A stretch of DNA of 57,795 bases from the IMG/VR virus record IMGVR_UViG_3300037827_000133, positions 1-57,795 of that record; one strand, 5' to 3'. The DNA is from a virus. Below the pieces are notes generated by a model that worked only from the letters and a program-made list of their open reading frames with translations, made no database searches and had not been told where the DNA came from. Positions 4,538 through 54,515 of this stretch are shown piece by piece (position 1 is the stretch's first letter; every line of letters begins with the position of its first letter). The translations under genes were made by a program, and so were the position numbers.

Positions 4538-5527
4538 ATGGCGAACAGCGTAGTGGGACTGGGACTAGCCTCCCCTCCCGTCCAACTCTCGAACACCGTC
4601 AACGCGATCTCGCAGAAATACATTGTCCCGGTGCTCGGCGACAACGTGTTCAAGCCTTCCCCCGTGTTCTGGGCGCTGACCCGTGACGGCAAGAAATTCG
4701 GAGCGGGCGAACTCGTGTTTCCCGAGATCAACCAAGAGGAACTCCCTGGTGGCGCGTACTACGGCGACCAACTCCTGGACACCTCCGTCGTCGATTCCGT
4801 GCAGCCAGCGAACCAGCAGTGGCGCCCGTATCGCCAGCCGATCGTGATCCCGATCACCGACGTCATCCTGAACCGTGGCGGCGCTGGCAACCTGGACATC
4901 ATCAAGCTCAAGTATCAGACGGCATCTGGGTCGTTCCTACAGAAACTGTCCCGCGCCCTGTGGCATACCTCCCCCCAGAATACCTCCCTCGACATCGACG
5001 ATATCGACTCGTGGCTGGGGCAGACGACCAACACCATCGCCGGCATCAACCGCAACCTGACGGCCAACGCCTTCTGGCAGCCACCGGCGAACCAGTCCAA
5101 CACCTCCGGCACGCTGACGCCGGCGAACGCTGAGACCGCGTACCAAGCTGTCACGTTCGGCTACGACGAGCCGGACCTGATGGTGATCGTGCAGAACCGC
5201 TACGCCGGATTCAAGAACAACTTCACCACTCTGGTGCGCTTCGGCCAGGGCATGCAGGACGAGGAAGCCTTGCAGGTTGGATTCCGCAACCACTTCCTGT
5301 TCAACAACGCTATCGTGGTGCCGGACGTATTCTGCCTGGCGAACTCGGCGTACTTCCTGAACTCGAAGTATATGTTCCCGGTGTTCCACGAGGCGGACTA
5401 CTTCAACGTGGACCCGTTCATCAAGCCCAGCAATCAGAGAGTGTTAGTAAGCACTATGTACCTAACGTGGCAGCAAAGCAACATTAGTCCACGAATGGGT
5501 ATAAAAATCACTAACATAACAGCATAA
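4538..5527 (+). CDS. Major capsid protein candidate
   Basis: 329 aa. AAGGAG RBS 8 nt upstream. Follows the scaffold. A strong terminator lies downstream of the capsid block. Confidence 0.7.
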   Translation: MANSVVGLGLASPPVQLSNTVNAISQKYIVPVLGDNVFKPSPVFWALTRDGKKFGAGELVFPEINQEELPGGAYYGDQLLDTSVVDSVQPANQQWRPYRQPIVIPITDVILNRGGAGNLDIIKLKYQTASGSFLQKLSRALWHTSPQNTSLDIDDIDSWLGQTTNTIAGINRNLTANAFWQPPANQSNTSGTLTPANAETAYQAVTFGYDEPDLMVIVQNRYAGFKNNFTTLVRFGQGMQDEEALQVGFRNHFLFNNAIVVPDVFCLANSAYFLNSKYMFPVFHEADYFNVDPFIKPSNQRVLVSTMYLTWQQSNISPRMGIKITNITA

Positions 5528-20970: not shown

Positions 20971-20972
20971 AC

Positions 20973-23488: not shown

Positions 23489-25584
23489 TGAGAAAACTAA
23501 ATCTAATCTTTTTGTTTCTCGTCAACATCGCCATGTTGCAGGCTCAGACTGGCACAGCTCCGCTTTATCAATCTACGACCAGCACGGCGAATCCAGGGCC
23601 GATCACCCCACTGTTCACGGGTACGGTCGGACAGAATAAGACGGCCTATGATACGACTTACAATCCTCCACCACTGGACTGCTACACGCAAGCCACGGAC
23701 TCTGTAACGATGGGTGGACTGTCTCTCGGAAACAACACTTGGTCAGGCGGGGCCAACGACTACATGGCGTTGCTGATTGGGCCAGATGGTACAGCATATT
23801 GGTTCATCGGAGACATCAACGGCGGGATGGACATGCTGCACGTTGACCTATCCGGGAACTGCGCGAGGGTTATAAACGCTGGCGTCAACCTTCACACTAG
23901 CGGCGTGCATGTGTCCGGTCCAATTGTTGCCTCCAAGGTCACATCCAATATTTTTTATAACTTAAATGGACCAACGAGGCTAAACTCTAACGTTATAAAC
24001 AGCGATACCAGTTACACTCCCACGCTTATGGTAGATGTGGCAAGCGGCACGTCTTGCCCCGGAATTCCGGCTCCTTCCACATTCATATATGCCGGAATAC
24101 TCGGGAGTAAGTACAACGACACTCGATTTGGCTGGTCACTAGGTAATTCAGGGGGGCAGGGAACGGCTGAGTGGAATGTAGCATACGATACCACATTACC
24201 GGGGTGCGCCGTGGTCCACATGACCACCGGCGACTACTGGGACTTCGGGGCGTGCGCTCCCGGCAGTTGCAGCCCGGCCACCCCACCGACAGGAACCTTG
24301 GCAACGGCTACCGCTTGCACAAATGGAACTGATTGTAGCTGTTGGATAGGGCCTCAAGCACAGGCCGCGATCACCAGCTTCTCGATCACAGGGAACGTGG
24401 TTACATTCGTCGCAAACAATTCCTTCACGGCAGGACTAACTCCCACAATTAGTCTGCCGTTCATTTCTTATTTAAACGGTCAGAGCCTTACGATACTCGC
24501 CGCAGGGCTTTCCTCGACGCAGTTCTCGGCCAATTTTACCCACGCCGACGTAACTTCTACAGCACAAACGGGATTTGCTACCACGACCGGAATCCATGAT
24601 TCACAGTTTTGTGGAGATGGAACCTGCACCGTCATGAGCGTTACCGGAGGCAATTATGCGCGTGGAACGTGTTCGGGAAAATTCGGAGGAGCGATTGTCT
24701 GGACCGTGGGCACATCGACAACTCAGTGGTGCATTGGAGGGAATGGGCAGACCGGGAATGGAGGGCAGCATTGTGGCGGGCACAATTCAGTAGGCACTAG
24801 CAAGATGCTCGACACATGGCCTCCGACTGACTTGGTATCGACCATCCGACCGTTGAGCAACGTGCTTTTGGCAACAACATGGCAAACTGCAACTACCGTC
24901 AACGACAACCAGCACGGGTTTTGGCCGCAACCGGATCACGCAGACGACTATCCTTGGATTGCGACTACCTATGACATGCTTCCGGCAGTTGGCACAGTCT
25001 ACAACCCGGTGAATCTTGGCAATGCAATTTTTGCGCAATATCCCCTTGCACTGAATCAGCCCTATACGATCTTCGGGCACACTTACAACGTGGGATCGAC
25101 TGACGCCAGCATAGCTATGGGTTTAGTACAGACCGGACCGAATTGGACTGCGGGAAAGACGTACACACTGAATCCCACGGTAACAATTATTACTCCGACT
25201 TCGGGGAATGCCGGCCATTACTCCTACGAAGCGACAGTTGCCGGGACAGGGGGTGGGTCTGCTCCTACTTGGACACAAACACCGGGCGCTAGCGTGACGG
25301 ATGGTGGCGCTACCCTAGTCAACATTGGAGTGGCTGGAGCATCTGTAGTTGAGAGTTACTTCGCCTGTCAGGATTCCATTATGAGCGTTTCTCAGGATGG
25401 CAACTGGGGGATGCTCGCCAGCAGCATGTTGCAGAGTTTGGGGCTGGATAGCGCTGGGAAGCCAGCCTGCCACGGCTTCATTGTCCATATCGGAAACCCG
25501 TTAGTAGCTCCTGTAGCGCCATCACCCATCTCCTTCGCCAAAAACGTCACAGAATCAGGAAAGTTTACGGCGGCTGGACACTAG
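23488..25584 (+). CDS. Fibre/spike-like or secreted beta-rich protein (698 aa) with signal-peptide-like N-terminus
   Basis: TGATG overlap. MRKLNLIFLFLVNIAMLQAQTG. Confidence 0.6.
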   Translation: MRKLNLIFLFLVNIAMLQAQTGTAPLYQSTTSTANPGPITPLFTGTVGQNKTAYDTTYNPPPLDCYTQATDSVTMGGLSLGNNTWSGGANDYMALLIGPDGTAYWFIGDINGGMDMLHVDLSGNCARVINAGVNLHTSGVHVSGPIVASKVTSNIFYNLNGPTRLNSNVINSDTSYTPTLMVDVASGTSCPGIPAPSTFIYAGILGSKYNDTRFGWSLGNSGGQGTAEWNVAYDTTLPGCAVVHMTTGDYWDFGACAPGSCSPATPPTGTLATATACTNGTDCSCWIGPQAQAAITSFSITGNVVTFVANNSFTAGLTPTISLPFISYLNGQSLTILAAGLSSTQFSANFTHADVTSTAQTGFATTTGIHDSQFCGDGTCTVMSVTGGNYARGTCSGKFGGAIVWTVGTSTTQWCIGGNGQTGNGGQHCGGHNSVGTSKMLDTWPPTDLVSTIRPLSNVLLATTWQTATTVNDNQHGFWPQPDHADDYPWIATTYDMLPAVGTVYNPVNLGNAIFAQYPLALNQPYTIFGHTYNVGSTDASIAMGLVQTGPNWTAGKTYTLNPTVTIITPTSGNAGHYSYEATVAGTGGGSAPTWTQTPGASVTDGGATLVNIGVAGASVVESYFACQDSIMSVSQDGNWGMLASSMLQSLGLDSAGKPACHGFIVHIGNPLVAPVAPSPISFAKNVTESGKFTAAGH

Positions 25585-25621: not shown

Positions 25622-25930
25622 ATGAATATCAGGAAAGGCTGGCTGGTCACCGTTGCAGGATGTATGGCGGCAATGGGAGGTGTTCCGGTTGCTACGTGGG
25701 CAGCATTGCAGGCTTTTCCTTCTATGAAAGTACCAGCATGGTTTACGTCGGCACAATTTTACTTTGTCCTAGTAGGGATTGTCGGCAGTGCACTCATGGG
25801 CTGGGCGGCGAAGGGAGCGGACGATCATTCCACTTCCGCGCAAGTGGCCGTATCGACTATCGAGAAACCGCAGATTCAGGCGGACGCTATTGTAGAACTG
25901 CAAACGAAAGCACCGGAGGTTAAACCGTGA
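25622..25930 (+). CDS. Membrane protein, holin candidate (two hydrophobic helices)
   Basis: WLVTVAGCMAAMGGVPVATWAAL and FYFVLVGIVGSALMGWAA. Confidence 0.5.
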   Translation: MNIRKGWLVTVAGCMAAMGGVPVATWAALQAFPSMKVPAWFTSAQFYFVLVGIVGSALMGWAAKGADDHSTSAQVAVSTIEKPQIQADAIVELQTKAPEVKP

Positions 25931-26124
25931 TCCAACTACTGATTTACGTTCTGATTCTGCTGATCGTGATGGCGCTGGTGTGGTGGATCGTATCCCTACT
26001 CCCGCTGCCACCTCCCGTAAAGCAGATCGCAACCGTCGTGCTTGTCGTGATCTGCGTCATTGCGCTGATCTACCTGCTGCTGCCGCTAGCCGGGAGCGGG
26101 CCGCACTACAACTTGAGGCCCTAA
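25927..26124 (+). CDS. Small membrane protein (two TM helices)
   Basis: GTGA overlap. MIQLLIYVLILLIVMALVWWIVSLL..VVLVVICVIALIYLLL. Confidence 0.55.
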   Translation: MIQLLIYVLILLIVMALVWWIVSLLPLPPPVKQIATVVLVVICVIALIYLLLPLAGSGPHYNLRP

Positions 26125-26547: not shown

Positions 26548-27313
26548 GGTGAAGTTCCTGGAGAACGCGCTACGACAGGCACAGAGATTCCGGTTCATGT
26601 CCCCCCGGACCGGCGGCGGAGGCGGTGGAGGAGGAGGCGGAGTGGGATCCACGGTTGACATTCTCGAATATCTGCTACCGAACGAGGCGTGGTCGGTCAG
26701 TTCGCACCTGGCCGTCGCTGGCGCTGGAGGGCAGCCGATCTACGTCCTGCTCGCAGGGAGTCGCATATGGCAGGTCAAGGGCTCCGGCGGCTTCCCTTGG
26801 GACGGCAACTCCTTCGACTCCAACTACGTATACCAGTCGATCACAGAAAACGTATACCTCACTCCGACTACGTTCAAGATGTTCGCGTCGGCGTCCTGGC
26901 CAGGAGCGAATGGCGGGATCGCGTGGCTGCCACGATACTTCACCGAGGGCGGCCGGAACGCTCCGATCGTCACGGCGGATTCCACGTATCGTATCTACAC
27001 CGCGTGCGGGGTATACACGACGTCGAGCCTCGGAGGCCCAGTCGAAGTCGAGGTCCAGGGGCCGTACTCGATCAACTTCGGCGGTACGCTCGGAGTCCAA
27101 TCCGCGATCGTACAGACGTATAAGTGGAATCCAGGGTATACGGTGATGGAGGTCAATTACTACGTCAAGGGGTATGGGCTGGTGCAGTGGGAGTCGTGGG
27201 CGCTGAGCGGCGGCGTCTACACGCGGCAACAGGTATCGGCGTTTAATACGGTCGTGGCTGGAGGATTGCCGGCGCTCGACTTCCCTTGCGGGGTGCCTAC
27301 GATCACGCCATGA
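26537..27313 (+). CDS. Hypothetical protein with a 10-residue poly-Gly linker and a beta-rich C-terminal domain
   Basis: Track ORF. Start uncertain (GTG 26537 or GTG 26549). Confidence 0.55.
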   Translation: MTTRVKFLENALRQAQRFRFMSPRTGGGGGGGGGGVGSTVDILEYLLPNEAWSVSSHLAVAGAGGQPIYVLLAGSRIWQVKGSGGFPWDGNSFDSNYVYQSITENVYLTPTTFKMFASASWPGANGGIAWLPRYFTEGGRNAPIVTADSTYRIYTACGVYTTSSLGGPVEVEVQGPYSINFGGTLGVQSAIVQTYKWNPGYTVMEVNYYVKGYGLVQWESWALSGGVYTRQQVSAFNTVVAGGLPALDFPCGVPTITP

Positions 27314-27723
27314 GCCTCAGCTACGAAATCACGACTGGGAAAATGTACTCAGGTGCCGGTAAGCTGCTGGCTACCGGCTACTCCGGCCAGCCGCCACACG
27401 TCAACGATATCGCGGCTGTGGGCGAGGTAGGGATTGGGCCGATCCCGCCTGGATCGTGGAGGATCAGCGAGATCGAGTGGGACAATCCTAGGCTGGGGCC
27501 GTTCGTGCTCGTATTGGAGCCAGACCCAGCTACTACGTTATACGTGTTATCGCTGGGTCGAGGGTCGCATACGTTCCGCATCCACGGGGAGCGGGAGCAA
27601 CCGCCACCGGGATACGCGAGTGATGGGTGTATAGTTTTACCGAGAGCACCACGCGAGCAGATTTGGAATTTAGGGGACCACGAACTCAATACGATCGCAA
27701 CACTCAAGGAGGAATCACAATGA
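27310..27723 (+). CDS. Tlde1/DUF2778-like L,D-transpeptidase-fold protein (cell-wall enzyme; lysin candidate)
   Basis: ATGA overlap. GIGPIPPGSW..GPFVLVLEP..FRIHGE..ASDGCIVLPRAPREQIW matches the DUF2778 pattern (GPIPxGxY ... F.IHG ... S.GCIV). Confidence 0.6.
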   Translation: MSLSYEITTGKMYSGAGKLLATGYSGQPPHVNDIAAVGEVGIGPIPPGSWRISEIEWDNPRLGPFVLVLEPDPATTLYVLSLGRGSHTFRIHGEREQPPPGYASDGCIVLPRAPREQIWNLGDHELNTIATLKEESQ

Positions 27724-28061
27724 CCACCGTATTAGGACCACCGACCAAATGGTCGGGATTCACCACCAACGACGTCAAGAGCGCGGATGAGTTCGCGGCC
27801 AAGCTGAGCGATCTCTACGCGCTAGGGTATACTGGGCCGGTCGTCGTAGTCACGGCTACGTCTCACAGTGGGCAGTGGGTCGCGGTAGCGGGGTACGACA
27901 AGGGACCGGTGCCGGTTCCAGTGCCAGTACCCGTCGGCGCGCATGCACCCATGCCCACCCATGCCGTGCCGCAATCGCAACCGAGTACGGGATGGCGCAA
28001 GAAACGCTGGGCTGGTCAGAATCCAACTCCAGCCTCGCACAGCATCGGAGGTGTCAAGTGA
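27720..28061 (+). CDS. Hypothetical protein with (PV)n tract, 113 aa
   Basis: ATGA overlap at 27720. Confidence 0.5.
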   Translation: MTTVLGPPTKWSGFTTNDVKSADEFAAKLSDLYALGYTGPVVVVTATSHSGQWVAVAGYDKGPVPVPVPVPVGAHAPMPTHAVPQSQPSTGWRKKRWAGQNPTPASHSIGGVK

Positions 28062-28639
28062 AGTTCAATCGCAACGTATTCTGGAAGCTGATCAGCATCT
28101 TCGCGGTCATGGACCTCTGCTGGCTGATGGCTGGCTGCGGCGACTGGGAAAATACTGCGTCACAGATCATCACTCTGCTCGGGCCAGCGCTGCAGGCTCT
28201 GGTGGCTATCCTCGCCGCGTTCGGCGTTGGCGTATCGGCCAGCGTGGTCGCGCAATTCAACTCCTGGGCGCAGCAGGCCCAGACATCCCTTGTCACGATC
28301 AAGGCGCTGATCGACTCCTACAAGACGGCAGCAGCGACCGCACAGCCCGGCATCCTGAACGAGATCCAGGCGGGCCTGACCGCGCTAACCAGCCAACTCG
28401 TGCCAATCATGTCCGAGTTGCATATCACCGATCCCGCGTCGCAGGCCAAGTTCGCGGCTGGCGTAGCAGCGGTGACGGCGTTCATCACGTCGCTGATCAC
28501 GCTGATTCCTTCTATATCCTCGGCCGTTACGCTCGAAGCCGAGAAGAAACTGGCGGATAAGGCGATGGAGAGCACTGGCCAATTCAAGTCCAACTTCAAT
28601 GGAGCGGTCAGTTACTTCGGAAACGAATACTGTATTTAG
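28058..28639 (+). CDS. Lipoprotein (193 aa, helical)
   Basis: GTGA overlap. MKFNRNVFWKLISIFAVMDLCWLMAGC has a canonical lipobox L-M-A-G-C. Confidence 0.65.
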   Translation: MKFNRNVFWKLISIFAVMDLCWLMAGCGDWENTASQIITLLGPALQALVAILAAFGVGVSASVVAQFNSWAQQAQTSLVTIKALIDSYKTAAATAQPGILNEIQAGLTALTSQLVPIMSELHITDPASQAKFAAGVAAVTAFITSLITLIPSISSAVTLEAEKKLADKAMESTGQFKSNFNGAVSYFGNEYCI

Positions 28640-28647
28640 GGTGAGAG

Positions 28648-29997
28648 ATGTCCGCAAGCACGATAGCCTTCTGTACGACGTGCAAGGGCCGCACCATGCA
28701 CGTCGCGCAGACGCTCCCAGCCAACATCCGAGACAACTCGGATGCTCGATTCGTGCTGATGAACTACAACTCCCCGGACGGATTGCTGGACTACGTCGTC
28801 ACCAACCACCACGCGGATATCCGTAGCGGCAAGCTGGTCGTGTATACGTTCGTAGCGGATGGTCCGTTCCACATGACCCACGCCAAGAACCTTGCTGCCA
28901 GGGCGGCGATCCGCGAGGGAGCGGGCGTCCTCGTCACGCTCGACGCCGACAACTTCACCGGGCCGTGCTTCGACCGCTTCGTGGCGGATAGGATGCAGGA
29001 GCCGGGAGTGTTCCTCCGCCCCGACTTCGAGACTATACGGAAGAGGCCGAATCGCCCCCAGCGTGGATTCGCCGGGAGGCTGGCGGTGCGGGCGCAGGAC
29101 TTCATCAAGGCTGGGGGGTATAACGAAGCCTTCGACACTTGGGGCGGCGAGGACGCGGACTTCAACGAGCGCATGGGCCGGATGGGCTATACGTCCCGGT
29201 TCATCGACACCCGCTACCTGAGTGCGATCCCACACAACGCCGAAGTTCGGTTCAGGGAGTATCCGCACGCGCGGCAGCACGAGGTAGACGAGAGTTGGCG
29301 ACTCGCGGTCCAACGCTATGATACGGTCGTCAACTGGGGACGGTTCGGCGTCGGCACGGTATACCGGAATGGCGATCCGACGCCGATCACGCTGGCTCCT
29401 ATCCCTACGCGCGTCTTCGGCATTGGCCTCCACAAGACGGCCACGACGTCGCTGCATCGGGCGTTCCAGCTCCTCGGCTTCGATAGCCTGCACTGGGGTA
29501 GCGGCGAGGCACCGGTGATCTGGGAGGAAGTGAATTGCGCCGGGCGGTCAAAGACGCTGGAGCGGTTCTACGCCGCATGCGATCTACCGATTCCACTGCT
29601 GTATCGCCAACTCGATCGCGCCTACCCTGGATCGAAGTTCGTGCTCACGGTACGCGCCGAGGCGGAATGGTTGCGTAGCGTCGAGCGGTTGTGGGACGCA
29701 CGGTACAACGCTACCCGCTGGGAGTGGGACGTGTGGCCGATCTCGAACCGGCTGCATCAGACGCTCTACGGACGCACCGACTTCGACGCTACGACGATGC
29801 TCGAACGGTACCGGAGGCACAACGCCGAGGTGCGGGACTACTTCCGCGGCCGACCGGAGGACTTGCTCGTGCTCGACATGAGCGCCGGCGCGGGATGGCC
29901 AGAACTATGTGGCTTTCTGGGATCGCCAGTGCCGCTGGTCCCCTACCCACGAGAATACGCTACGAAACTACAGGAGGGTATCCGATGCTCGACGTAA
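28648..29997 (+). CDS. Bifunctional GT-A glycosyltransferase (N-terminal) :: sulfotransferase (C-terminal) fusion
   Basis: N-terminal: LDADNF (DxD) and GGYNEAFDTWGGEDADFNERM. C-terminal: GLHKTATTSL (5'-PSB-like) and VLTVRAEAEWLRS (3'-PB-like). Confidence 0.65.
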   Translation: MSASTIAFCTTCKGRTMHVAQTLPANIRDNSDARFVLMNYNSPDGLLDYVVTNHHADIRSGKLVVYTFVADGPFHMTHAKNLAARAAIREGAGVLVTLDADNFTGPCFDRFVADRMQEPGVFLRPDFETIRKRPNRPQRGFAGRLAVRAQDFIKAGGYNEAFDTWGGEDADFNERMGRMGYTSRFIDTRYLSAIPHNAEVRFREYPHARQHEVDESWRLAVQRYDTVVNWGRFGVGTVYRNGDPTPITLAPIPTRVFGIGLHKTATTSLHRAFQLLGFDSLHWGSGEAPVIWEEVNCAGRSKTLERFYAACDLPIPLLYRQLDRAYPGSKFVLTVRAEAEWLRSVERLWDARYNATRWEWDVWPISNRLHQTLYGRTDFDATTMLERYRRHNAEVRDYFRGRPEDLLVLDMSAGAGWPELCGFLGSPVPLVPYPREYATKLQEGIRCST

Positions 29998-30794
29998 CGA
30001 AGGTTAAGCTGGGAAAGCTGCCACCACGGATAGACGACAGGACGCTACGGTTCGCCCGGTACGCCGGAGCGCTCCCACTGCCGCCACCGGCGTGCGACTT
30101 CAGCAAGGGCGTCACTGCTTGGGGCATGATGAACAATGACGTCCTCGGCTGCTGCGTGTGTGCGATGAACGGCCACGGCGCGCAAGTGGCCACGCTGAAC
30201 TCCGAAGAGGGAGAGATCACCGCGCCCGACCCGCTCATCCTCTCACTGTACGAGATCGCCTGCGGGTACCAGCCGAAGGACGCCAACACGGACCAGGGCT
30301 GCGTCATCGTGGACGTCCTCAACTACGTCCGCCAGCATGCGCCGTGGGCCAAGAAGAGACGGTTCGACGAGAAGGGGCATAAGCATCCGTATCAATTGAT
30401 GGCGTATGCGGACCCGGATCCCGCCAACATCGTCCACGTGCAGCAGGCGATCTACCTGTTCCAGACGGTCGGCATCGGGCTGCAGTTGCCGATCACCGCG
30501 CAGAATCAGACCGGGCCGAATACGCCGTGGGACGTCGTGGGCGATCCGAACTCCGATCCTAATTCGCAGCCGGGGAGCTGGGGAGGGCACGCGGTCGTGG
30601 TCATCGGGTATAACGCTACCGGATTCCTGTGTATCACATGGGGAGCGCTCCAGTGGATGACGACGGCCTTCTGGAACGCCTACGTGGACGAGGCGCATGC
30701 GCTGCTCTACCGGTCCCGCGCGGCGCAGCTCGGAGCGGAGATGCCAGCCATGCTGACGGCGCTGGAGTCCGACTTGGCACTAGTGACAGGGTGA
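29985..30794 (+). CDS. Papain-like (C1-type) cysteine peptidase candidate
   Basis: AGGAGGG RBS. LGCCVCAMNGHG (Cys) ... WGGHAVVVIGYN (His) ... ITWGALQW, with papain-like spacing. Confidence 0.5.
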   Translation: MLDVTKVKLGKLPPRIDDRTLRFARYAGALPLPPPACDFSKGVTAWGMMNNDVLGCCVCAMNGHGAQVATLNSEEGEITAPDPLILSLYEIACGYQPKDANTDQGCVIVDVLNYVRQHAPWAKKRRFDEKGHKHPYQLMAYADPDPANIVHVQQAIYLFQTVGIGLQLPITAQNQTGPNTPWDVVGDPNSDPNSQPGSWGGHAVVVIGYNATGFLCITWGALQWMTTAFWNAYVDEAHALLYRSRAAQLGAEMPAMLTALESDLALVTG

Positions 30795-33532: not shown

Positions 33533-33762
33533 AGTTTGAGCGTTCCCTTTTCTAGCGCGTCTACCAACGTCTGCGCGAGCTTAATACGACTATGGATGCT
33601 ATCAATCTCCCGTGCGGTATCTAGTTCCACACGTCGGATATCTTGCTTTAGTCGTTTAATAAGGTTGCGCTTACCCTTCAACATCTTCTCTGCCGCGTTT
33701 AGTGTCGTCATCGTACTCTCCTCCCTACAACCAAGGTCGCAACTAGAGGGCTTTTGGCGCAT
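33529..33762 (-). CDS. Small coiled-coil protein (start at 33762 or ATG 33711)
   Basis: Track ORF. Its first codons MRQKPSSC..GC duplicate the polymerase N-terminus MRQKPQSC.GC. Confidence 0.5.
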   Translation of the reverse strand: MRQKPSSCDLGCREESTMTTLNAAEKMLKGKRNLIKRLKQDIRRVELDTAREIDSIHSRIKLAQTLVDALEKGTLKL

Positions 33763-34580
33763 CAGTCCTCTTCTCCGTCAAAGCAAGCGCAGTCAGTGTC
33801 CATCGTATTCTCGCGCATCTCACAACGCTTTGCTGCGTCTGCTTTGACCAGTTCTTCCCAACTCCAGTGCCGCCCAAGGCCCTTAATTACCTCACATTTT
33901 CCTCCAGCCAAAGCTCTCCGTTCCATTGCGACCGCACGCGCAAACAAGTCAGGATGCTCCTCAGATAGTTTGATCACTTCAGGCTTCCGCATAGACGGAC
34001 AGAAGAAACACGCAGACTTGCCGGGCTGTGGTAATCCAGCAGACTGGATCGCCTCTACACATTCCTCGCGGCCCCATCCCCACTCAATCAGCGGATACCA
34101 GAAGTCGTATTTCTCGTTGGCATAAACCTTAGCCCGTTGCGGCTCTCCCGCGTCGTAGCCAATCACTTGAAGCACCTTCTTACCTTGCGCCCACGCGGTT
34201 CGAGCAGGCTCCCAATGATTGAGGAACTTCTGCTGCGGTTCTATCTTATAGCGCTGTGAACAAGACTTATAGCCAAATGCCTTGCTGGGAAGATTCTCAA
34301 GGCGTAGACACATTCCCTCTAAGCCCTCAAATCCTCTCTCTGGTCTTGGACTCTCCGCTCGTACTGTAGTGATTGCAGGTAGACCATGTGCTACACACCA
34401 GTCCGACAGTACCTCTACGAACTTATAGGTCTCTGGTTTCTCTCCCTTAGTGTCACTAAAGGTTATTAGGTCCACACGCTGCCCACGACGAGCAAACTCA
34501 ACTATAAGGCCACCAGAGTTGGTTCCTCCCCCACAAGCAAGGCTAATAGGGCCATCGTACTCATATACCTCTACTCTCAT
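33762..34580 (-). CDS. PAPS reductase-like PP-loop enzyme
   Basis: ACGGGTNSGG PP-loop-like motif. C-terminal Cys cluster (CFFCP, CACF). ATGA overlap with the helicase stop (the track starts at GTG 34586). Confidence 0.7.
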   Translation of the reverse strand: MRVEVYEYDGPISLACGGGTNSGGLIVEFARRGQRVDLITFSDTKGEKPETYKFVEVLSDWCVAHGLPAITTVRAESPRPERGFEGLEGMCLRLENLPSKAFGYKSCSQRYKIEPQQKFLNHWEPARTAWAQGKKVLQVIGYDAGEPQRAKVYANEKYDFWYPLIEWGWGREECVEAIQSAGLPQPGKSACFFCPSMRKPEVIKLSEEHPDLFARAVAMERRALAGGKCEVIKGLGRHWSWEELVKADAAKRCEMRENTMDTDCACFDGEED

Positions 34581-35899
34581 AACCACGGCCTCACTCGCTC
34601 ATCCACCTTGCACTGCGTCACGAACCTTTCTCGCTGTCCTACTATCCGTAGTCCCTCTAGCGTCCGGCACCGCGACATTGCTACGTAGAGCATCGCCGGA
34701 GCCGAGAAGAAGTGATCCCGGATGTCAATCTGGCAACGGTCCAGCGAGATCCCTTGCGACTTGTGCACCGTAGACGCATACGCCAGCCGCACCGGCCACA
34801 TCTCACACTGCCCCTCGACGAAGCGCTTCTTATCCGGCATCCAATGCGGATACGGCAGCCACTCCCCGTGTCCGTTGGCGTGCGACCCTCCCCAGCCATC
34901 CGGCTTGTCCTTGCGACCGACGTCGCGGACTACTCTTCCGACATCGACGTCGCAATCGGTTCGAACCAGTCGAACGCAAAGGCCAGAACGCCCAGCACCG
35001 CCCCCAACAATATGCCCGCAATCACCATTTGCGTATACCATCCGACCTTCTTCATCGTAGCTGTTACTGAGTAGCATGACATACGCGCCCTCCTTCAACG
35101 TTATACGGTCCGGCACCTGCTTCCACTCGCCGCGCTGCTTGCCCCATCGGCGATTGGTGAGCGTGAACGTCGGGCCGGGGAGGCGATCCAGTGCCATCCC
35201 GTTATACCGGTCCACCTGATCATTCTTGGAGACGATCGTCGTACCGTCATACGTGATGTCGAGGGCGGAGTGCCATTCCAGCCCCTCCGCCGTCAACACG
35301 TCCGCCGAGGCAGCCCCCTCGCCACCGCGTGCGAAATTCAGCGCCGTCAGGAACGGTCCCGCGTCCTGGCGCCATACCTTGGTCAGTCGGGTAGTGTTGG
35401 CGTCGAAGCGGTGCCACTCGTCCGACTCGAAGGCCCACTTCGCCTTGACCGGCGGCAACTGACAGTAATCGCCAGTTAACATGATGCCAAGTGGCGGCAT
35501 GTGCTTCGGCGACAGGAACGAATTGCACTCCAGCGCCGCGCGGACGAGGATGCCCAGTTGGTCGCCGTCCATCATCGACACCTCGTCGATTACCAAGCGG
35601 CAGTAGTCCTCGCGGATATCTTTTAACCGTCGGACTAGGGATCCGTTAAGGTAGGCGTCGCGTAGACTCGCAGTATCGAAGTAGCGAAGACAGCTATTAA
35701 TAGTGGTTGTGCCAAGGTTGATCGCGCTGATTCCGGTAGTTGAGCAGATGAGGCCCCACGAGGGATCAGCGGCGGCGTGTTCGCGACACAAGTACGACTT
35801 GCCACTACCGGCCACGCCTGTGAGGAATTCGCATGGGACAGTAGGCCCCACCGGTGTCGCCTCTTCCACGTCCATCGCCACTTCTTGATCGTCGGTCAT
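34577..35899 (-). CDS. SF1B helicase (PIF1/RecD/Dda-like)
   Basis: GVAGSGKS (Walker A), VIDEVSMM (Walker B), TVHKSQG. Start taken at ATG 35899 (ATGA overlap) rather than 36106. Confidence 0.85.
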   Translation of the reverse strand: MTDDQEVAMDVEEATPVGPTVPCEFLTGVAGSGKSYLCREHAAADPSWGLICSTTGISAINLGTTTINSCLRYFDTASLRDAYLNGSLVRRLKDIREDYCRLVIDEVSMMDGDQLGILVRAALECNSFLSPKHMPPLGIMLTGDYCQLPPVKAKWAFESDEWHRFDANTTRLTKVWRQDAGPFLTALNFARGGEGAASADVLTAEGLEWHSALDITYDGTTIVSKNDQVDRYNGMALDRLPGPTFTLTNRRWGKQRGEWKQVPDRITLKEGAYVMLLSNSYDEEGRMVYANGDCGHIVGGGAGRSGLCVRLVRTDCDVDVGRVVRDVGRKDKPDGWGGSHANGHGEWLPYPHWMPDKKRFVEGQCEMWPVRLAYASTVHKSQGISLDRCQIDIRDHFFSAPAMLYVAMSRCRTLEGLRIVGQRERFVTQCKVDERVRPWL

Positions 35900-50362: not shown

Positions 50363-50549
50363 GACTCTAAGCATTACCTGCGACATTTGCGGCATGGTGG
50401 TAGAGCCAAGATGGGCGGTAGAGCTAAGTCTGGACTCACCTCGTAATCCTATATCTACTCGCCTAATCGCCCACTGGGACGCCTGCTCGGATTGTGGGAA
50501 GAAGATAATCAGCGCTGTAGTGTCAATGAGGAATTCAGTCAATGGCTAA
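50319..50549 (+). CDS. Small Zn-ribbon protein (CDIC...CSDC); start uncertain (possibly GTG 50355)
   Basis: Track ORF. Confidence 0.45.
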   Translation: MITSMKPSKRADVSKTLSITCDICGMVVEPRWAVELSLDSPRNPISTRLIAHWDACSDCGKKIISAVVSMRNSVNG

Positions 50550-52107
50550 GTTCAACGTAACCAAGGTGGCCCCTGATGGATTCATGCATCATCAAGGCTT
50601 CGACGAGGTCATCGACTCGGTATCGTGGTCCCTCGCCTCCCTCGGCCACGGGGTCAACGTCACGCAGAACTGGTGGTCCGAGCAGCGTGAGACGAATATC
50701 GTATTCGGCGCGGAGTTGATGCCGGACTTCCAGCGATGTCCGCCCAATACGATATTTTTCAATCTTGAACAACCATCGCATCCCAATATGGCCACGGTGC
50801 GTAAGGTAGCTAAGGACTCTCACGCTATCGTGTGGGATTATAGCCAGAGATCGGTACAGGAGTGGAAGTCCGCAGGCCACGATCGCGTCGTCCACGTTCC
50901 GATTGGATATACAGAGAACCTTACAAGGATCCCTCATGCGACCCCGGACATTGATGTACTATTTGTTGGCTGGCTCACTGCTCGTCGCCGCGCTCTCATC
51001 GATGAGCTACAGAAGTATGGTCTTAATGTGTGTGCTAGCGCTGCTTGTTATGGCGGCGGCCGCGACCAACTCATCTCCCGGGCGAAAGTGATCCTCAACG
51101 TCCACCACGACGGACGGGACCGCTTCGAGATCGTGCGCGTCTCCTACGCGATGGCCAACGGCAAGTGTGTGGTCAGCGAATCCTCCTCCGACGACGACGA
51201 ATACGCGGACCTGCGCAACGGACTCTCCATATCCCCGTACCGTATGTTGGTAGAGTCGTGCCGCTCCTACTGTTCCTCGACGGCATCGCAGGAACGGCTT
51301 CACATGCAGGATAAGGCGATGGAACTGATCAAGAAGAGGGACTTCCCTGCCGCTATCGCCGCCGCCCTCGACGCATTCCCCCCGTCCACGTCCGCCTCCA
51401 TCCCCACCCCGTCCCGCCCTCTGGAATTCAAGATGGAGCGCGGCCAGCACCGGCGCGAGTTCATGGCGGAGGCACGCGGGCTCGCAGAGAAGCCACACGC
51501 CAAGGTCAAGGCGCGGTACGACGCGGCTCTGCGCTCCGGCGACATGCGCGACTTCGTGGCTTGGATGCGGGAGCACGCTCGCGGCAACGTGATGGAGATC
51601 GGCGTCCGCGATGGCGCATCCACATCGGCGTTCCTGCTGGGCGTCGAGGAGCACGGCGGCCATCTCTATTCCGTCGATGTCGATCCACGCTGCTCGCTCC
51701 TGTTCGAGGGCCATCCGCAGTGGACGTTCATCCACGCTAACTCGACCGACCGCAAAACAGTGTTCGCCAAGATCCCGTACGAGCTCGACGTCCTCCTCAT
51801 CGACGGCGACCATTCCAAGGCTGGCGTCCTGGCCGACCTCGAATACGCCCGCCTCGTCCGCCCCGGCGGCATGATCCTGTTCCACGACATCGCGCCGGAA
51901 AAAGTTCCCGATGGCTGCAACGACGCCTCGTGGCCGGGGGACGACGTGCGCGGCGTATACGAGGCTACGTGCCGCGGTCAGGCTACGCTGGGATGGACGC
52001 ACGAGGAACTCCCTGGCCGATACGGGATGGGCGTGCTGCATCGTCCTGTCGCCGCCGTGGCGAAGGAGGCCGCGAGTGAAGATACTGTTCCTGTCGAGCG
52101 GCGGTAA
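50542..52107 (+). CDS. Glycosyltransferase-like (GT-B C-terminal-half pattern) :: class I SAM methyltransferase fusion
   Basis: DVLFVGWLTARRRALIDEL..SRAKVILNVHH..FEIVRV..NGKCVVSE. C-terminal VMEIGVRDGASTSAFL and LLIDGDHS..LVRPGGMILFHD (Methyltransf_24-like). Confidence 0.6.
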   Translation: MAKFNVTKVAPDGFMHHQGFDEVIDSVSWSLASLGHGVNVTQNWWSEQRETNIVFGAELMPDFQRCPPNTIFFNLEQPSHPNMATVRKVAKDSHAIVWDYSQRSVQEWKSAGHDRVVHVPIGYTENLTRIPHATPDIDVLFVGWLTARRRALIDELQKYGLNVCASAACYGGGRDQLISRAKVILNVHHDGRDRFEIVRVSYAMANGKCVVSESSSDDDEYADLRNGLSISPYRMLVESCRSYCSSTASQERLHMQDKAMELIKKRDFPAAIAAALDAFPPSTSASIPTPSRPLEFKMERGQHRREFMAEARGLAEKPHAKVKARYDAALRSGDMRDFVAWMREHARGNVMEIGVRDGASTSAFLLGVEEHGGHLYSVDVDPRCSLLFEGHPQWTFIHANSTDRKTVFAKIPYELDVLLIDGDHSKAGVLADLEYARLVRPGGMILFHDIAPEKVPDGCNDASWPGDDVRGVYEATCRGQATLGWTHEELPGRYGMGVLHRPVAAVAKEAASEDTVPVERR

Positions 52108-52981
52108 CACCTGCGACTATCAACGTGACGCCTTATTTCATGGTCTACGTACTCTGCTCGGTTCAGGAGTGGTCGATGTCCATCGGATCGATACAATGTA
52201 CAAAGACTTCGGTGACGTATCTGGCCTCTACGGTCGTGGTATGACTTTATATGGATTGTTGGGAGACGACTCCGACGTAGACCGAACTGATATCCCTCGC
52301 AAGATCGCCAACAAATATTTCGACATCGTGCTCTATGGTAGCGTTCATAGGTGTCAAGACTACCTTCAGGAAGTGGCGTCCATGTACGATCCACGCCGCG
52401 TAATTTTCATCGACGGGGAGGATCACGCAGGATATCTCCAAGGACTAGGCGGGATTTATCTGAAGCGCGAGCTTTACAATGCGCAACCGAACGTGTGGCC
52501 GATTCATTTCGCTATCCCTGCTGAGAAAATTCTGTCTGACGCTCCGATAAAGTCTCGGCTTATGGCTCCCTGCGACCCCCTTAATCGCAAGACTTATATC
52601 TATAAGACGGAGCAGGAATACTACGCTCAATACGCTGATAGTTACTACGCCCCAACTATGAAAAAAGCAGGATGGGAAGCGCTTCGCCACGAGGAAATTT
52701 TGTCGCAGTGGTGCCTGCCGTATTTCCGAGTGATGGATCAGTTGCCAAACTTAATCTGTCATAAGCTGCCCCGGCTCGAACTAATGCTAGTGAAGTCGAT
52801 GGTAGAGTATTGGGCCGACACAAAAAACGGTAATATTCGTGACCTGCTCATTGATCTATGGGCAGCTATCATTGATAGGGTGATGAAGGTCGTGCGGGAG
52901 GAGTTGACTACGGTTGCGCTAGCTAAGTACGTGCTTAACATAGTTGGAGTGAAAGAACTATGCCCTGTGCTTACGTTATAG
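52076..52981 (+). CDS. Hypothetical protein, possibly glycan-biosynthesis related (301 aa)
   Basis: GAAGGAGG RBS before GTG 52076. AT-richer. KILFLSSGG...FIDGEDH...YLKRELY pattern recalled from polysaccharide loci. Weak. Confidence 0.45.
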   Translation: MKILFLSSGGNTCDYQRDALFHGLRTLLGSGVVDVHRIDTMYKDFGDVSGLYGRGMTLYGLLGDDSDVDRTDIPRKIANKYFDIVLYGSVHRCQDYLQEVASMYDPRRVIFIDGEDHAGYLQGLGGIYLKRELYNAQPNVWPIHFAIPAEKILSDAPIKSRLMAPCDPLNRKTYIYKTEQEYYAQYADSYYAPTMKKAGWEALRHEEILSQWCLPYFRVMDQLPNLICHKLPRLELMLVKSMVEYWADTKNGNIRDLLIDLWAAIIDRVMKVVREELTTVALAKYVLNIVGVKELCPVLTL

Positions 52982-53619
52982 AAAACTTGGTCAATGGGAA
53001 ACTATATGTTGGTTTTACTAGTGGAGAGTTTACCGTCCGTTGGAAAAGACATCAGTTGGCGGCTGCACATGGATACCAGACGTATTTCATATACGCGCTG
53101 CGAAAGTATGGCGTCGTCTGTTTCCGTCCTGTGGCCGTGTTTGAGTGTTCGTCGGCGGAAGAGGGTAAGCTCATGGAGATTTTTCTCATAGCCTTATTTG
53201 ATACGCAAGATGCAAAGCGTGGCTACAACCTAACTGCTGGTGGAGATGGAATGTTGAATCCTACACCAGAAACTCGTCGTAAAATAAGCGAAGCTGGCAA
53301 GGGGCGGGTTCTATCTGAGGAAGCACGCCGTAAGATATCAGAAAGCAAGCTAGGTAACAAAGTCTGGGTGGGACGAAAACATTCTGAGGATACCAAGCGT
53401 AAGATGAGCTTGGCTTCTAAGGGAAACCTAAGATGTTTGGGAAAGAAATATAACCTTACTCCTGAACAGCGCGAATCTAGACGAGTTCGTATGCTGGGCA
53501 ATATTAACTCTAAGGGAATAGTGATGTCTGAGGAATCCAAGCGCAAGAAGTCTCTGGCCATGCTGCGGTATTGGTCCTCGATCGGCGTCTCTCGCAAGGA
53601 GTCCGTCCAGTGCGTCTGA
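52960..53619 (+). CDS. GIY-YIG homing endonuclease with NUMOD3-like repeats
   Basis: YVIENLVNGKLYVGFT..R...H. Repeated S-E-E-[AS]-[RK]-R-K-[IK]-S modules. Confidence 0.88.
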   Translation: MPCAYVIENLVNGKLYVGFTSGEFTVRWKRHQLAAAHGYQTYFIYALRKYGVVCFRPVAVFECSSAEEGKLMEIFLIALFDTQDAKRGYNLTAGGDGMLNPTPETRRKISEAGKGRVLSEEARRKISESKLGNKVWVGRKHSEDTKRKMSLASKGNLRCLGKKYNLTPEQRESRRVRMLGNINSKGIVMSEESKRKKSLAMLRYWSSIGVSRKESVQCV

Positions 53620-54515
53620 TCCTCGATGGTGAACGCGCCAAGAAGCTCCGCGTCTGGATCCTGATCCCCGCCGCCGGCGACCTCATCCACGCCACTTTCT
53701 CCACCCACCTGATCACCCTCCTCGGCCTCCTCCGCCTCCACGGGATCTGGTACAAGCTCCACTACCTCCCCGGCGACTCCCTGATCACGCGCGCGCGGAA
53801 CAACCTCGCGTCCATCTTCATGTCATCCTCCGCCGACGACGACTGTGACTTCGCGCTATGGCTGGACGTGGACATCCTGTTCGACCCGCAGTCCGTCCTG
53901 CAGATGCTATCCCTGGACCTCGACTTCGTCGCCGCACCGTACTCTAAGAAGGGATTCCACATCGACCGGATGCGGGCGGCCGCAGAGTTAGGATGGACGA
54001 ACGACCGTGTGATGGCCGTAGTGGGCACACCGAACGTCAATTGGGTCACCAACCCGATCCGCTGCGACGAGCCCATGCCGGTCCTCGAGGCTGGCTCCGG
54101 CTTCTGGCTGGTCAAGCGGAAAGTGTTCCGTATGATGGCCGACTCCCTGCCCGAGATCCGCTACCGCCGATCCCACGAGGAGACCGCACACTACGGCACC
54201 GACCACGCGCACGACTTCTTCCGCGTGGGCGTATGGCCGGAGACATCCGAGTACCTGTCCGAGGATTGGTGGTTCTGTCGCCAGTGGCGCAACCTCGGCG
54301 GGACGGTGTACTGTTGCTTCTGGATCAAGACGCATCACATCGGGCCGTATCTGTACCCGATGGACATGCCCGTGATCGCGGACTTACTGACACAGACCGG
54401 AGGATTCATCAATGCCGAAACCAAGCCCAACCGCACCGGAGTCAACGGACGGGATCACACCGAAGACGGACGACCCGCGCCCGATCAAGCAGCAGTCCCG
54501 AGCGATCCAGGCTAG
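53610..54515 (+). CDS. GT-A-type glycosyltransferase candidate
   Basis: WLDVDILFDP (DxD-like) and SEDWWFCRQWRNLGG pattern. Start GTG 53610 or TTG 53571. Confidence 0.5.
   Translation: MRLILDGERAKKLRVWILIPAAGDLIHATFSTHLITLLGLLRLHGIWYKLHYLPGDSLITRARNNLASIFMSSSADDDCDFALWLDVDILFDPQSVLQMLSLDLDFVAAPYSKKGFHIDRMRAAAELGWTNDRVMAVVGTPNVNWVTNPIRCDEPMPVLEAGSGFWLVKRKVFRMMADSLPEIRYRRSHEETAHYGTDHAHDFFRVGVWPETSEYLSEDWWFCRQWRNLGGTVYCCFWIKTHHIGPYLYPMDMPVIADLLTQTGGFINAETKPNRTGVNGRDHTEDGRPAPDQAAVPSDPG

Follow-up and report, generated by a model that had tools for sequence, protein, structure and literature searches.

Mycobacteriophages carry glycosyltransferase (GT) and O-methyltransferase genes in the structural region, and published reports connect them with virion glycosylation (PMC4351075; PMC12619734, citing Freeman 2023). 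For Corndog gp35-38, an O-methyltransferase together with glycosyltransferases, these are late-region GT-A-type and O-methyltransferase genes whose role in modifying virion proteins has been proposed or shown, the acceptors being C-terminal tails, rich in Ser/Thr, on capsid and tail-tube proteins. In rhizobia, Nod factors are sulfated by the NodH sulfotransferase, which has a dedicated NodPQ ATP sulfurylase/APS kinase. PAPS-type sulfotransferases are also borne by marine and ice phages as "auxiliary metabolic genes" (AMGs) whose role is unexplained (Synechococcus phage S-SRM01, OM43 phage MVGs), and we know of no demonstration of sulfation in phage biology. Among giant viruses, chlorovirus A064R is a GT-GT-methyltransferase, and putative sulfotransferases occur in Megavirinae (PMC11625862).

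Here, we report a phage gene whose product joins a GT-A glycosyltransferase to a Sulfotransfer_4 sulfotransferase (ST). Like the mycobacteriophage genes, it belongs to the late region, where it ends the late arm, and the same genome has a gene for a Methyltransf_24 protein beside TerL. With Nod-factor sulfation it shares, in some of its relatives, the logic of a carbohydrate sulfotransferase supplied by its own PAPS-making enzyme; with A064R, a virus-encoded GT fused to a glycan-tailoring domain, sulfotransferases of giant viruses being represented by a Hokovirus hit; and with the AMGs, a PAPS-type sulfotransferase in a phage. A description of a GT::ST fusion was not found in the searchable literature.

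The fusion protein and its two domains

The window, i.e., the whole stretch of DNA analysed (57,795 nucleotides), represents a phage genome in full, in which TerL, portal and MCP genes and a terminal repeat of 127 bp are present, as expected from the preliminary description, which had taken the fusion to be phage-borne; the phage is known solely from a metagenome. Its relevant features are listed in Table 1.

Table 1. Features of the window related to the fusion gene and its surroundings
Feature	Position	Strand	Basis or remark
Major capsid protein (MCP)	4538..5527		ends ...MGIKITNITA, without a Ser/Thr-rich C-terminal tail
Small two-TM holin-like protein, lysis cassette start	25927..26124	+	function suggested by size and hydrophobicity only
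Tlde1/YkuD-fold (L,D-peptidase-like), candidate endolysin	27286..27723	+	Tlde1_dom E=2.4e-8, YkuD E=4e-4, phrog_24118 E=8e-24
Lipoprotein-like, spanin-like gene directly 5' of the fusion	28058..28639	+	lipobox-like LMAGC; hydrophobic stretch near C-terminus
GT::ST fusion ORF	28648..29997	+	449 aa, coordinates exact
GT-A glycosyltransferase domain	28648..29397	+	residues 1-250; Glyco_transf_7C, invariant motifs, Foldseek
Sulfotransfer_4 (PAPS-dependent sulfotransferase) domain	29398..29997	+	residues 251-449; PF17784, PDB, fold, invariant motifs
Papain-like (C1-fold) cysteine protease-like partner	29985..30794	+	AF2/Foldseek, conserved C57/H202, linkage to fusion
PP-loop gene	33762..34586	-	between PolA and Dda helicase, in the replication module
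Possible accessory, C-terminal Methyltransf_24	50542..52107	+	PF13578 E=1.3e-17, residues 352-450; second locus, immediately 5' of the terminase gene
"GT-like" ORF of the second locus	51911..52981		GT identity rejected: no significant Pfam, NCBIfam or PDB match
"GT-like" ORF of the second locus	53571..54515		GT identity rejected: no significant Pfam, NCBIfam or PDB match

The public gene call for the fusion (P0001, 433 aa) is truncated N-terminally. In 36 homologues, C12 and R15 are invariant and F8, T11, K13 and G14 nearly so, and because these N-terminal residues are conserved the start at 28648 is supported. The AF2 model of the protein reaches a pLDDT of 85.5 and a pTM of 0.85, and the protein has no signal peptide. 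Pfam, PDB sequence and fold matches to both halves confirm that the ORF is a true GT-A glycosyltransferase::Sulfotransfer_4 fusion, the architecture that had been proposed from the letters alone.

In the GT half, Glyco_transf_7C (PF02709) matches residues 140-188 with 36.8 bits and E=3e-9, above the Pfam cut-off of 23 bits; Glycos_transf_2 and Glyco_tranf_2_2 stay below their own cut-offs in the fusion protein. D99 and D101 of LDADNF (the DxD motif), E168/D169 of WGGEDAD and H196 are invariant in the 36 homologues, and Glyco_transf_7C is a precomputed annotation in nearly all of the best 120 of more than 1,400 homologues. Foldseek returned GT-A structures (8vh8, 2z86, 6yv7, 6nqt, 1yro and 9omm, E 4e-8 to 1e-6), i.e., heparosan synthase (8vh8), chondroitin polymerase (2z86), ppGalNAc-T2, beta4GalT1, PcManGT and WrtF, so that the best fold matches fall into GT2, GT7, GT27 and other families at 11-17% identity. 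The known GT-A enzymes with Glyco_transf_7C (beta4GalT1/GT7, ppGalNAc-T/GT27, chondroitin and heparosan synthases/GT2) have in common with the GT half the GT-A fold, the DxD, the WGGED-type motif and, some 28 residues past the latter, a conserved His; at only 11-17% identity to them, however, the GT half has no lectin, second GT or membrane domain.

The ST half matches PF17784 (Sulfotransfer_4) almost end to end: of the 215 profile positions, 1-210 are aligned with residues 255-437, with 123.5 bits and E=1.5e-35 (Pfam cut-off 22.8 bits). The 5'-phosphosulfate-binding loop GIGLHKTATTSL is present after strand 1 (pattern GxGxx[K/R]T[A/G]TxS) and aligns with GVGFGRTGTAS of SgdX2 and GAGFGRTGTLS of Cpz8, its G258, G260, T266 and S268 being invariant in the 36 homologues. 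The 3'-phosphate-binding Arg...Ser pair lies in LTVRAEAEWLRS (pattern LTVRxxxxWxxS), where R336 is invariant and S344 is kept in at least 90% of the same homologues; the pair aligns with LTVRDPVQWHRS, LTVRDSERWYDS and LTIRDRNDWLTS of the PDB sequence matches. D312 is invariant as well. Both PAPS-binding motifs, which had been called only "like" such motifs in the preliminary description, are thus intact and match those of SgdX2, Cpz8 and schistosome SULT-OR. The same three proteins are found by PDB sequence and by fold (SgdX2 8y9p, Cpz8-PAP 9kf2, SULT-OR 4mua/5tiz), with Foldseek E of about 1e-9 and target-normalised TM of 0.55-0.74 against 9kf2, 8y9p and 4mua. SULT-OR (4mua/5tiz), SgdX2 (8y9p) and Cpz8 (9kf1/9kf2) share the fold, the full-length profile, the 5'-phosphosulfate loop, the R...S pair and the Asp with the ST half; unlike it, they are stand-alone enzymes of about 200-260 aa acting on drugs or natural-product intermediates, whereas the ST half sits behind a glycosyltransferase, is virus-encoded and is linked to APS kinase and protease. 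That the closest ST structures are small-molecule sulfotransferases speaks against the explanation that we favor below.

The ST clade of the fusion is joined to three GT folds, namely GT-A/7C, TPR-GT41 and GT1, and because one clade is fused to such different folds, a glycoside is the probable ST substrate. CysQ-like PAP phosphatase domains are also fused to members of this clade and, together with fused or adjacent APS kinase (see below), indirectly back the predicted use of PAPS by the ST domain.

Family spread, neighborhood and module partners

The fusion family has more than 1,400 homologues, of which 77 lineages were sampled. It was found at 26 loci in IMG/VR and in 2 of 185,579 species genomes, both of the latter being prophage-like contexts in bacterial MAGs, which argues for a virus-specific role. 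Among 50,697 GenBank phage records no ST-domain match was obtained, megablast of 12 kb gave no match, and tblastn gave one match to the GT domain only (29% identity); the rarity of phage sulfotransferases noted earlier therefore holds for cultured phages, and the homologous fusions that do exist are nearly confined to viral contigs. Even where two phages share only 27-46% identity in PolA, TerL and portal, their fusions retain 52-68% identity, and the phages sharing the highly conserved fusion have putative hosts from different phyla. The fusion module is mobile, almost virus-restricted and widespread rather than one-off. A C-terminal single hydrophobic helix or DUF2061 membrane domain is present in 11 of the best 120 of the >1,400 homologues, and the tail anchors among these 120 are mostly non-homologous, i.e., independent; such proteins point to an acceptor at the membrane more than to a soluble protein of the virion.

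In the window, the product of the Tlde1/YkuD-fold gene would have a lysis role, and the fusion follows the lipoprotein-like gene. It is directly 3' of holin/spanin-like genes in the window and in L004, L020/29, L025, L027 and L082, and holin-like homologues lie within about 3 kb of it in 7 of 28 well-flanked lineages. The lipoprotein-like gene itself is not conserved alongside the fusion; analogous lipoprotein or Rz-like genes are upstream in L004 and L020/L029, and a conserved gene 5' of the fusion was rejected as the upstream genes are unrelated between loci. The placement between a lipoprotein gene (LMAGC) and a papain-like peptidase at the end of the late arm agrees with the preliminary description, the last point because the next gene after the papain-like partner is a convergent PolA. 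Across lineages the fusion may follow the lysis cassette, precede the terminase or, as in L017, fall within the replication module between helicase and polymerase, and this variable gene position counts against our best explanation. The adjacent fibre-like ORFs are Ser/Thr-rich (22-29% S+T); Ser/Thr-rich ORFs of this phage are located at 14986-20970, 20955-23147 and 23488-25584. A RiPP/glycocin-like cassette (GT-A with leader Cys-peptidase) was sought by clustering ORFs of 25-130 aa from 28 loci, before the metagenome scan; no conserved precursor-like ORF appeared, and the only clusters were holin-like and lysis-type proteins, which lends such a cassette no support. Neither the fusion nor the partner matches a PADLOC defence model, and membership in anti-phage defence or known counter-defence was rejected on this basis. 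DNA glycosylation was likewise rejected, although weakly: a hydroxymethylase/TET-type gene was not found among 133 neighboring ORFs, which hold two C5 DNA methylases only.

The start of the papain-like partner overlaps the fusion stop by 13 nt, with AGGAGG placed 7 nt 5' of the partner ATG at 29985. Its AF2 model (pLDDT 87.7) matches xylellain 3ois (E=7e-10, TM 0.58) and also procathepsins K, L and B in Foldseek. All of 32 homologues keep C57 and H202, which align with GSCT and GGHAV of xylellain; an invariant N51 stands six residues ahead of C57 at the place of papain Gln19, while a clear Asn175 equivalent is not seen and D235 and E236 are invariant instead. No Pfam family, including Peptidase_C1, matches at E up to 5, and the best PDB profile hit has E=0.18 only. 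Going by the model, the partner has a papain-like fold and a Cys/His dyad, yet by sequence it is not a Peptidase_C1 member. Among lineages flanked by 2.5 kb or more on either side, 12 of 28 have the partner near the fusion (17 of 40 when 1 kb or more is required). Of the 29 lineages having it, 27 have it on the fusion's strand, and its distance from the fusion never exceeds about 1.7 kb; the 13-nt overlap recurs identically in a jumbo-phage-like contig, and P0065 is GT, ST and protease in one polypeptide. The co-location, the common strand, the overlap and this triple fusion link protease and fusion, while roughly every second lineage lacks a nearby partner, which weighs against our best explanation.

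PAPS supply and methylation also accompany the family. P0063 is a triple fusion of APS kinase, GT and ST (APS_kinase E=5e-55), and 8 of the 28 well-flanked lineages have a separate APS-kinase gene beside the fusion. In the window genome tblastn at E up to 10 found no APS kinase; therefore, this phage must use host PAPS. A methyltransferase adjoins the fusion in six lineages overall, with Methyltransf_24 genes directly 3' of it in L038, L005-08 and L028, and the census of 133 neighboring ORFs includes FkbM, TylF and Methyltransf_24 methyltransferases and extra GT2s. The idea of a sulfated and sometimes methylated glycan thereby gains independent support from APS-kinase genes and fusions, CysQ-like fusions and adjacent Methyltransf_24. 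Of the second locus, described earlier as GT, methyltransferase and GT-like genes, the Methyltransf_24 domain stands and may be tied to the fusion in the window genome. The two "GT-like" ORFs have no significant GT profile; they match phrog_1574 (unknown function) and, weakly, Anp1 (E=0.005 only), and a GIY-YIG homing endonuclease lies between them.

Proposed function and alternatives

Our best explanation, to which we give an even chance, is that the protein is a cytoplasmic GT-ST, the core of a mobile tailoring module, which glycosylates and sulfates probably phage-made proteins late in infection. For the order of the reactions, the donor sugar, the timing and the acceptor, we infer the following. 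The metal-dependent GT-A domain would transfer a sugar from a nucleotide sugar to the acceptor, and the Sulfotransfer_4 domain would then sulfate the resulting glycoside with PAPS. Around this core, the papain-like protease, the APS kinase and the Methyltransf_24 O-methyltransferase would be optional parts, the protease being translationally coupled to the fusion and the APS kinase topping up PAPS in those relatives that have it. Fusion and partner are probably made late because in this phage the pair closes the late operon, directly behind the lysis cassette. The targets may be phage-made proteins, e.g., virion surface or fibre proteins, on which short O-glycans, sulfated and in some cases also methylated, would be placed; the protease would have these proteins as its substrates too. 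Phage-made proteins are our leading guess for the acceptor, ahead of host envelope glycans, because of the protease linkage, the TPR-GT41-ST relative and the likeness of the GT to ppGalNAc-T; the Ser/Thr-rich fibre-like ORFs and the mycobacteriophage precedent also favor them. It should be noted that a Ser/Thr-rich tail like that of mycobacteriophages is absent from the MCP, which speaks against a virion-protein acceptor. The full picture, in which soil/peat phages of several lineages use self-made PAPS to put sulfated and in some cases methylated O-glycans on virion proteins or secreted proteins of their own while a protease processes the same substrates, is offered tentatively. If true, no sulfated glycoconjugates would have been known from bacterial viruses before, and the particle surface would be polyanionic, mucin- or heparin-like, altering adsorption, soil persistence or recognition.

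Phage GT-A enzymes are known to alter host surface polymers (Gtr systems, the prophage WTA glycosyltransferase TarP), and the fusion could likewise remodel the host envelope, i.e., cap a lipid-linked glycan or glycolipid precursor of the O-antigen, EPS, capsule or teichoic-acid type with a sulfated sugar at the cytoplasmic face of the inner membrane, leading to receptor masking, superinfection exclusion or progeny release. We consider this unlikely. The independent tail anchors (11 of the best 120 homologues) and DUF2061, and the nearby FkbM, TylF and Methyltransf_24 methyltransferases and extra GT2s, would suit such a role, but no flippase, GtrA/B-like or transporter partner was found among the 133 neighboring ORFs and the protease linkage is left without explanation. 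The two prophage-like MAG contexts also agree with it, as does a moron-like placement of the gene, which follows the lysis cassette or precedes the terminase; against these stand the near absence of the family from cellular genomes, the little time that late expression leaves for exporting a modified polymer, and a conservation across host phyla that would be atypical of enzymes whose substrates are surface glycans, which evolve fast and differ between strains. That same conservation in a virus-restricted gene would fit a conserved host target, so that the GT-ST might tag a cytoplasmic host protein or a small-molecule signal while the protease cleaves host proteins, the pair being a takeover or anti-defence effector comparable to glycosylating toxins that carry protease domains. 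The cytoplasmic location predicted by the lack of a signal peptide, the linked and fused protease, the protein substrates suggested by the TPR-GT41-ST relative, the L017 gene between helicase and polymerase and the small-molecule substrates of the closest ST structures are all in line with this. However, the usual place of the gene is the end of the late/lysis region and not among early genes, the accompanying O-methyltransferases and extra GTs suit glycan building over a single inactivating mark, PADLOC models match neither protein, and a takeover mechanism based on glycosyl-sulfation has no precedent known to us; we regard such host-protein modification as quite improbable.

A further reading, which unites the fusion, the PP-loop gene and the second GT/methyltransferase locus in one phage sulfur/glycan pathway, has only a very slim chance. 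It draws on the presence of three loci within one genome, on the Methyltransf_24 genes adjoining the fusion in other lineages and on the match of the PP-loop gene to phrog_424, annotated "PAPS reductase". A PAPS reductase consumes PAPS and does not supply the sulfate donor, which it would destroy. The PP-loop gene exists as described earlier, but it does not behave as CysH: there is no match to Pfam (PAPS_reduct, E up to 1) or to the PDB, NCBIfam gives E above 1e-4 only, far under the cut-offs, and the ECGLH-type motif is absent on reading the sequence. It matches the DNA phosphorothioation protein SspD (E=5.6e-18), and DndC, SspD and BrxP are PAPS-reductase-domain proteins acting in DNA phosphorothioation (PMC12914056). 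The gene is thus SspD/DndC-like, a DNA-modification type, and lies between PolA and Dda helicase; its seven IMG/VR contigs and the 26 fusion contigs have none in common, and it is in no fusion locus. The link between a PAPS reductase and the fusion was therefore abandoned, and, as far as the PP-loop gene is concerned, the one-pathway reading is largely refuted. The label "PAPS reductase" on a gene of a phage replication module is not to be taken as a sign of sulfate metabolism.

Comparison with described systems

Mycobacteriophage virion glycosylation lacks a sulfotransferase, an APS kinase and a protease and uses Ser/Thr-rich tails that the window MCP does not have; no sequence relatives of the fusion are found among the GenBank phages. 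NodH belongs to another sulfotransferase family, is cellular and has neither a GT fusion nor a protease, and the giant-virus enzymes are from viruses of eukaryotes, where sulfation is uncharacterised too, and come without a protease or APS-kinase module. Surface modification of the Gtr or TarP type involves a membrane partner or close cellular GT homologues, neither of which is seen here (133 neighboring ORFs; 2 of 185,579 genomes), although tail anchors in about 10% of the best 120 homologues give partial support for membrane action. The near confinement to viruses and a conservation above that of hallmark phage genes argue for an important virus-specific function, and the fusion is most likely a case of virus-encoded glycan tailoring, in a variant with a predicted sulfation step. 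The phage sulfotransferases listed in the literature were found only as unexplained AMGs of another Pfam family (Sulfotransfer_3), single-domain and with no described GT fusion or linked module, whereas here the GT-ST belongs to a coherent module, repeatedly joined to a PAPS-making kinase, a cysteine protease and an O-methyltransferase through adjacency and natural fusions.

Catalytic sites of the fusion protein

The phage genome in the window is complete: an exact direct repeat of 127 bp at both contig ends indicates that it is an entire circular or terminally redundant molecule of ~57.7 kb; portal, major capsid protein, and large terminase are all encoded, together with a leftward replication arm of PolA, a Dda-like helicase, and a Sak4-like protein. 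No close relative was found among 50,697 GenBank phage records.

The ORF proposed in the preliminary description as a glycosyltransferase (GT) fused to a sulfotransferase (ST) is present exactly as stated there, and both halves are confirmed by Pfam profiles and fold search, the ST half by PDB sequence as well. Residues 255-437 match Sulfotransfer_4 (PF17784, E=1.5e-35, 210/215 profile positions), and the PAPS-dependent SgdX2, Cpz8, and schistosome SULT-OR are matched in the PDB both by sequence (E about 1e-9) and by fold. Residues 140-188 match Glyco_transf_7C above the Pfam cut-off, and the whole N-terminal half retrieves GT-A enzymes in the fold search, i.e., heparosan and chondroitin synthases, ppGalNAc-T2, beta4GalT1, an archaeal mannosyltransferase, and WrtF. 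AlphaFold gives a confident model (pLDDT 85.5, pTM 0.85). Across 36 homologues the expected catalytic positions, PAPS-binding residues included, are invariant or nearly so: D99/D101 (DxD), E168/D169 (WGGED-type motif), and H196 in the GT half; G258, G260, T266, and S268 of the 5'-phosphosulfate loop, D312, and the 3'-phosphate pair R336 and S344 in the ST half. The 449-aa reading is correct and the public 433-aa gene call truncated, since the N-terminus is conserved among homologues. Without a signal peptide, the fusion is a cytoplasmic protein in which both the GT-A site and the PAPS-type ST site are intact, each domain being a member of an already known family.

Features of the phage genome discussed in the text
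Feature	Position	Strand	Remark
Terminal direct repeat	1-127 and 57669-57795
Fibre-like protein	20955-23147	+	Large, Ser/Thr-rich (29%)
Fibre-like protein	23488-25584	+	Large, Ser/Thr-rich (22%)
Small holin-like membrane protein	25927-26124
Tlde1/YkuD-fold (L,D-transpeptidase/peptidase-like) protein	27286-27723	+	Inside presumed lysis cassette
GT-ST fusion	28648-29997	+	449 aa
Papain-like partner	29985-30794	+	ATG start
PolA	30707-33532	-	941 aa; N-terminal extension of ~250 aa
PP-loop ORF	33762-34586	-
Methyltransferase/'GT-like' locus	50542-54515
GIY-YIG/NUMOD3 homing endonuclease	52960-53619	+	Between two ORFs of the preceding locus, just upstream of terminase gene

Family distribution and the genetic module

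A word-indexed search returned 1,437 homologues of the fusion, and an exhaustive search of cluster representatives gave 178 at E<=1e-30. Among the best 120 of the 1,437, query coverage is at least 91% and identity 54-68%, and nearly all have both domains in their precomputed Pfam annotation, four rows having PF17784 alone. Pattern scanning located homologous fusions at 26 IMG/VR and 78 metagenome loci, and the same type of scan found the fusion in 2 of 185,579 species-representative genomes. Both cellular cases look like prophages: in a Solibacteraceae MAG the gene lies at a contig end adjoining ERF, YqaJ, and lysozyme genes, and in an Alphaproteobacteria MAG it follows tail-fibre-like and holin-like ORFs. 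The family is large and virus-restricted, with carriers ranging from genomes of ~55-60 kb up to a jumbo-like contig of 265-340 kb; no relative of the ST domain was detectable in isolated phages in GenBank. Between phages the fusion shares 52-68% identity, whereas PolA, helicase, terminase, or portal share only 27-46%, indicating horizontal spread under strong constraint. Within the ST domain of one copy on a jumbo-phage-like contig (L002 9002-10513, the same as L015 and L075), a ~50-aa Cys/His-rich insertion (…CTCGHDYNAHFHGHHGDSECK…CSCGNF…) may form a zinc-binding module.

The papain-like partner overlaps the fusion stop by 13 nt and has AGGAGG 7 nt upstream of its start. Its public gene call is N-terminally truncated (222 vs 269 aa); for both proteins the longer form is backed by conservation of N-terminal residues and by the AGGAGG site. 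There are at least 601 homologues, and none of the 120 matches listed carries a Pfam domain or an informative name. The model (pLDDT 87.7) shows a papain-like fold by fold search (xylellain, E=7e-10; procathepsins too), and Cys57 and His202 are invariant. In unrelated phages a partner homologue immediately follows the fusion, and the jumbo-like contig shows the identical 13-nt overlap; the two genes share a strand in 27 of 29 partner-bearing lineages, and the partner, which may precede or follow the fusion, is never more than ~1.7 kb away. In L104 (1729-2421) and three other lineages, the position immediately upstream of the fusion is taken by another, more divergent Cys/His papain-like family (…NNIDGDCCTAEEA…DHCPSLCGYG…) instead of the usual partner.

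All loci were merged into 77 lineages, and neighbours were counted in the 28 with at least 2.5 kb on each side: the papain-like partner occurs in 12, an APS kinase in eight (PF01583, E=1e-54 to 1e-61), the small holin-like protein in seven, and a Methyltransf_24 gene in three. De novo clustering places the Methyltransf_24 gene in six lineages and yielded no further recurrent family beyond lysis-cassette proteins and convergent PolA. Pfam annotation of 133 neighbouring ORFs also shows methyltransferases of the FkbM and TylF types and additional GT2-type genes, with no dominant structural family. Natural triple fusions join APS kinase, GT, and ST (P0063) or GT, ST, and a papain-like domain (P0065). 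The fusion forms the centre of a module: it is coupled genetically to a Cys/His papain-fold protein and, among its relatives, also to PAPS supply and O-methylation; no APS kinase was found in the window genome.

In the wider ST clade the same domain is fused to CysQ-like PAP phosphatases (inositol-monophosphatase domain; representatives P0353, P0360, and P0384), to an OGT-like TPR-GT41 (P0285), and to GT1 (P0352). Because PAPS-making and PAP-removing enzymes are attached to this clade, real PAPS-dependent chemistry is supported, and the pairing with three different GT folds suggests that ST sulfates the sugar installed by GT. Judged by domain architecture, these proteins may belong to a broader, as yet undescribed group of 'glycosylate-then-sulfate' enzymes.

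The PP-loop gene and other features of the genome

SspD is a component of the SspABCD DNA-phosphorothioation system, and any true PAPS reductase consumes the sulfate donor. The PP-loop ORF, previously linked to the fusion as PAPS-reductase-like, matches only phrog_424 (PHROGs 'PAPS reductase') and PADLOC SspD (E=5.6e-18), with no Pfam PAPS_reduct, NCBIfam, or PDB match. It lies in the replication arm between PolA and the Dda-like helicase, and its IMG/VR relatives share no contig with those of the fusion; on these grounds we rejected it as part of the module. The PAPS-reductase-domain proteins DndC, SspD, and BrxP have a role in DNA phosphorothioation (PMC12914056). The phage itself may modify its DNA backbone or bases. 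As for the second locus, also described as carrying GT and methyltransferase genes, only the Methyltransf_24 domain was verified; the two 'GT-like' ORFs, with the homing endonuclease between them, were unconfirmed.

The Tlde1/YkuD-fold protein may be an unconventional endolysin. Both fibre-like proteins have N-termini resembling Sec signal peptides (MKKLLTITLLVLVALLLAAAG...; MRKLNLIFLFLVNIAMLQAQ...), unusual for tail proteins, and they might serve as acceptors or be secreted. In PolA homologues near the fusion at other loci (e.g., L046 3533-6157), the N-terminal extension contains a GEAPG-type, uracil-DNA-glycosylase-like motif, which is apparently degenerate in the window PolA (AEASGELE).

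Proposed function and comparison with known systems

We propose that the GT half would add a sugar, which the ST half would then sulfate, and that fusion and partner would be expressed late, because the pair closes the late operon directly 3' of holin- or spanin-like genes, as seen in the window phage and at least six other lineages. As a whole, we give this explanation an even chance; our confidence is high for the enzyme and module and lower for the acceptor. For the latter we tentatively favor phage-made proteins, with surface or fibre proteins of the virion as the likeliest, since this is a virus-restricted family, protein substrates are suggested by the protease linkage and by the TPR-GT41 relative, and the late position and the mycobacteriophage precedent fit.

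Sulfation of a host envelope precursor at the inner membrane would agree with the independent C-terminal tail anchors in 11 of the best 120 homologues; however, the fusion is nearly missing from cellular genomes and has no flippase or transporter partners, making this acceptor rather unlikely. Less probable again is a conserved cytoplasmic host protein or metabolite, modified for takeover or counter-defence, given that the gene is usually late and keeps glycan-tailoring company; all other targets together are the least probable.

Virus-encoded glycan tailoring is known from the GT/O-MT clusters of mycobacteriophages (PMC4351075) and from chlorovirus and mimivirus enzymes (PMC11625862). Phage sulfotransferases are on record only as unexplained AMGs (PMC10580990, PMC8290583), which belong to a different Pfam family from the fusion ST. 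In full-text literature searches on these topics we found neither a GT-Sulfotransfer_4 fusion nor its association with APS kinase and a papain-like protease described. The module is widespread, coherent, and directly testable, and it would bring sulfation into phage biology.
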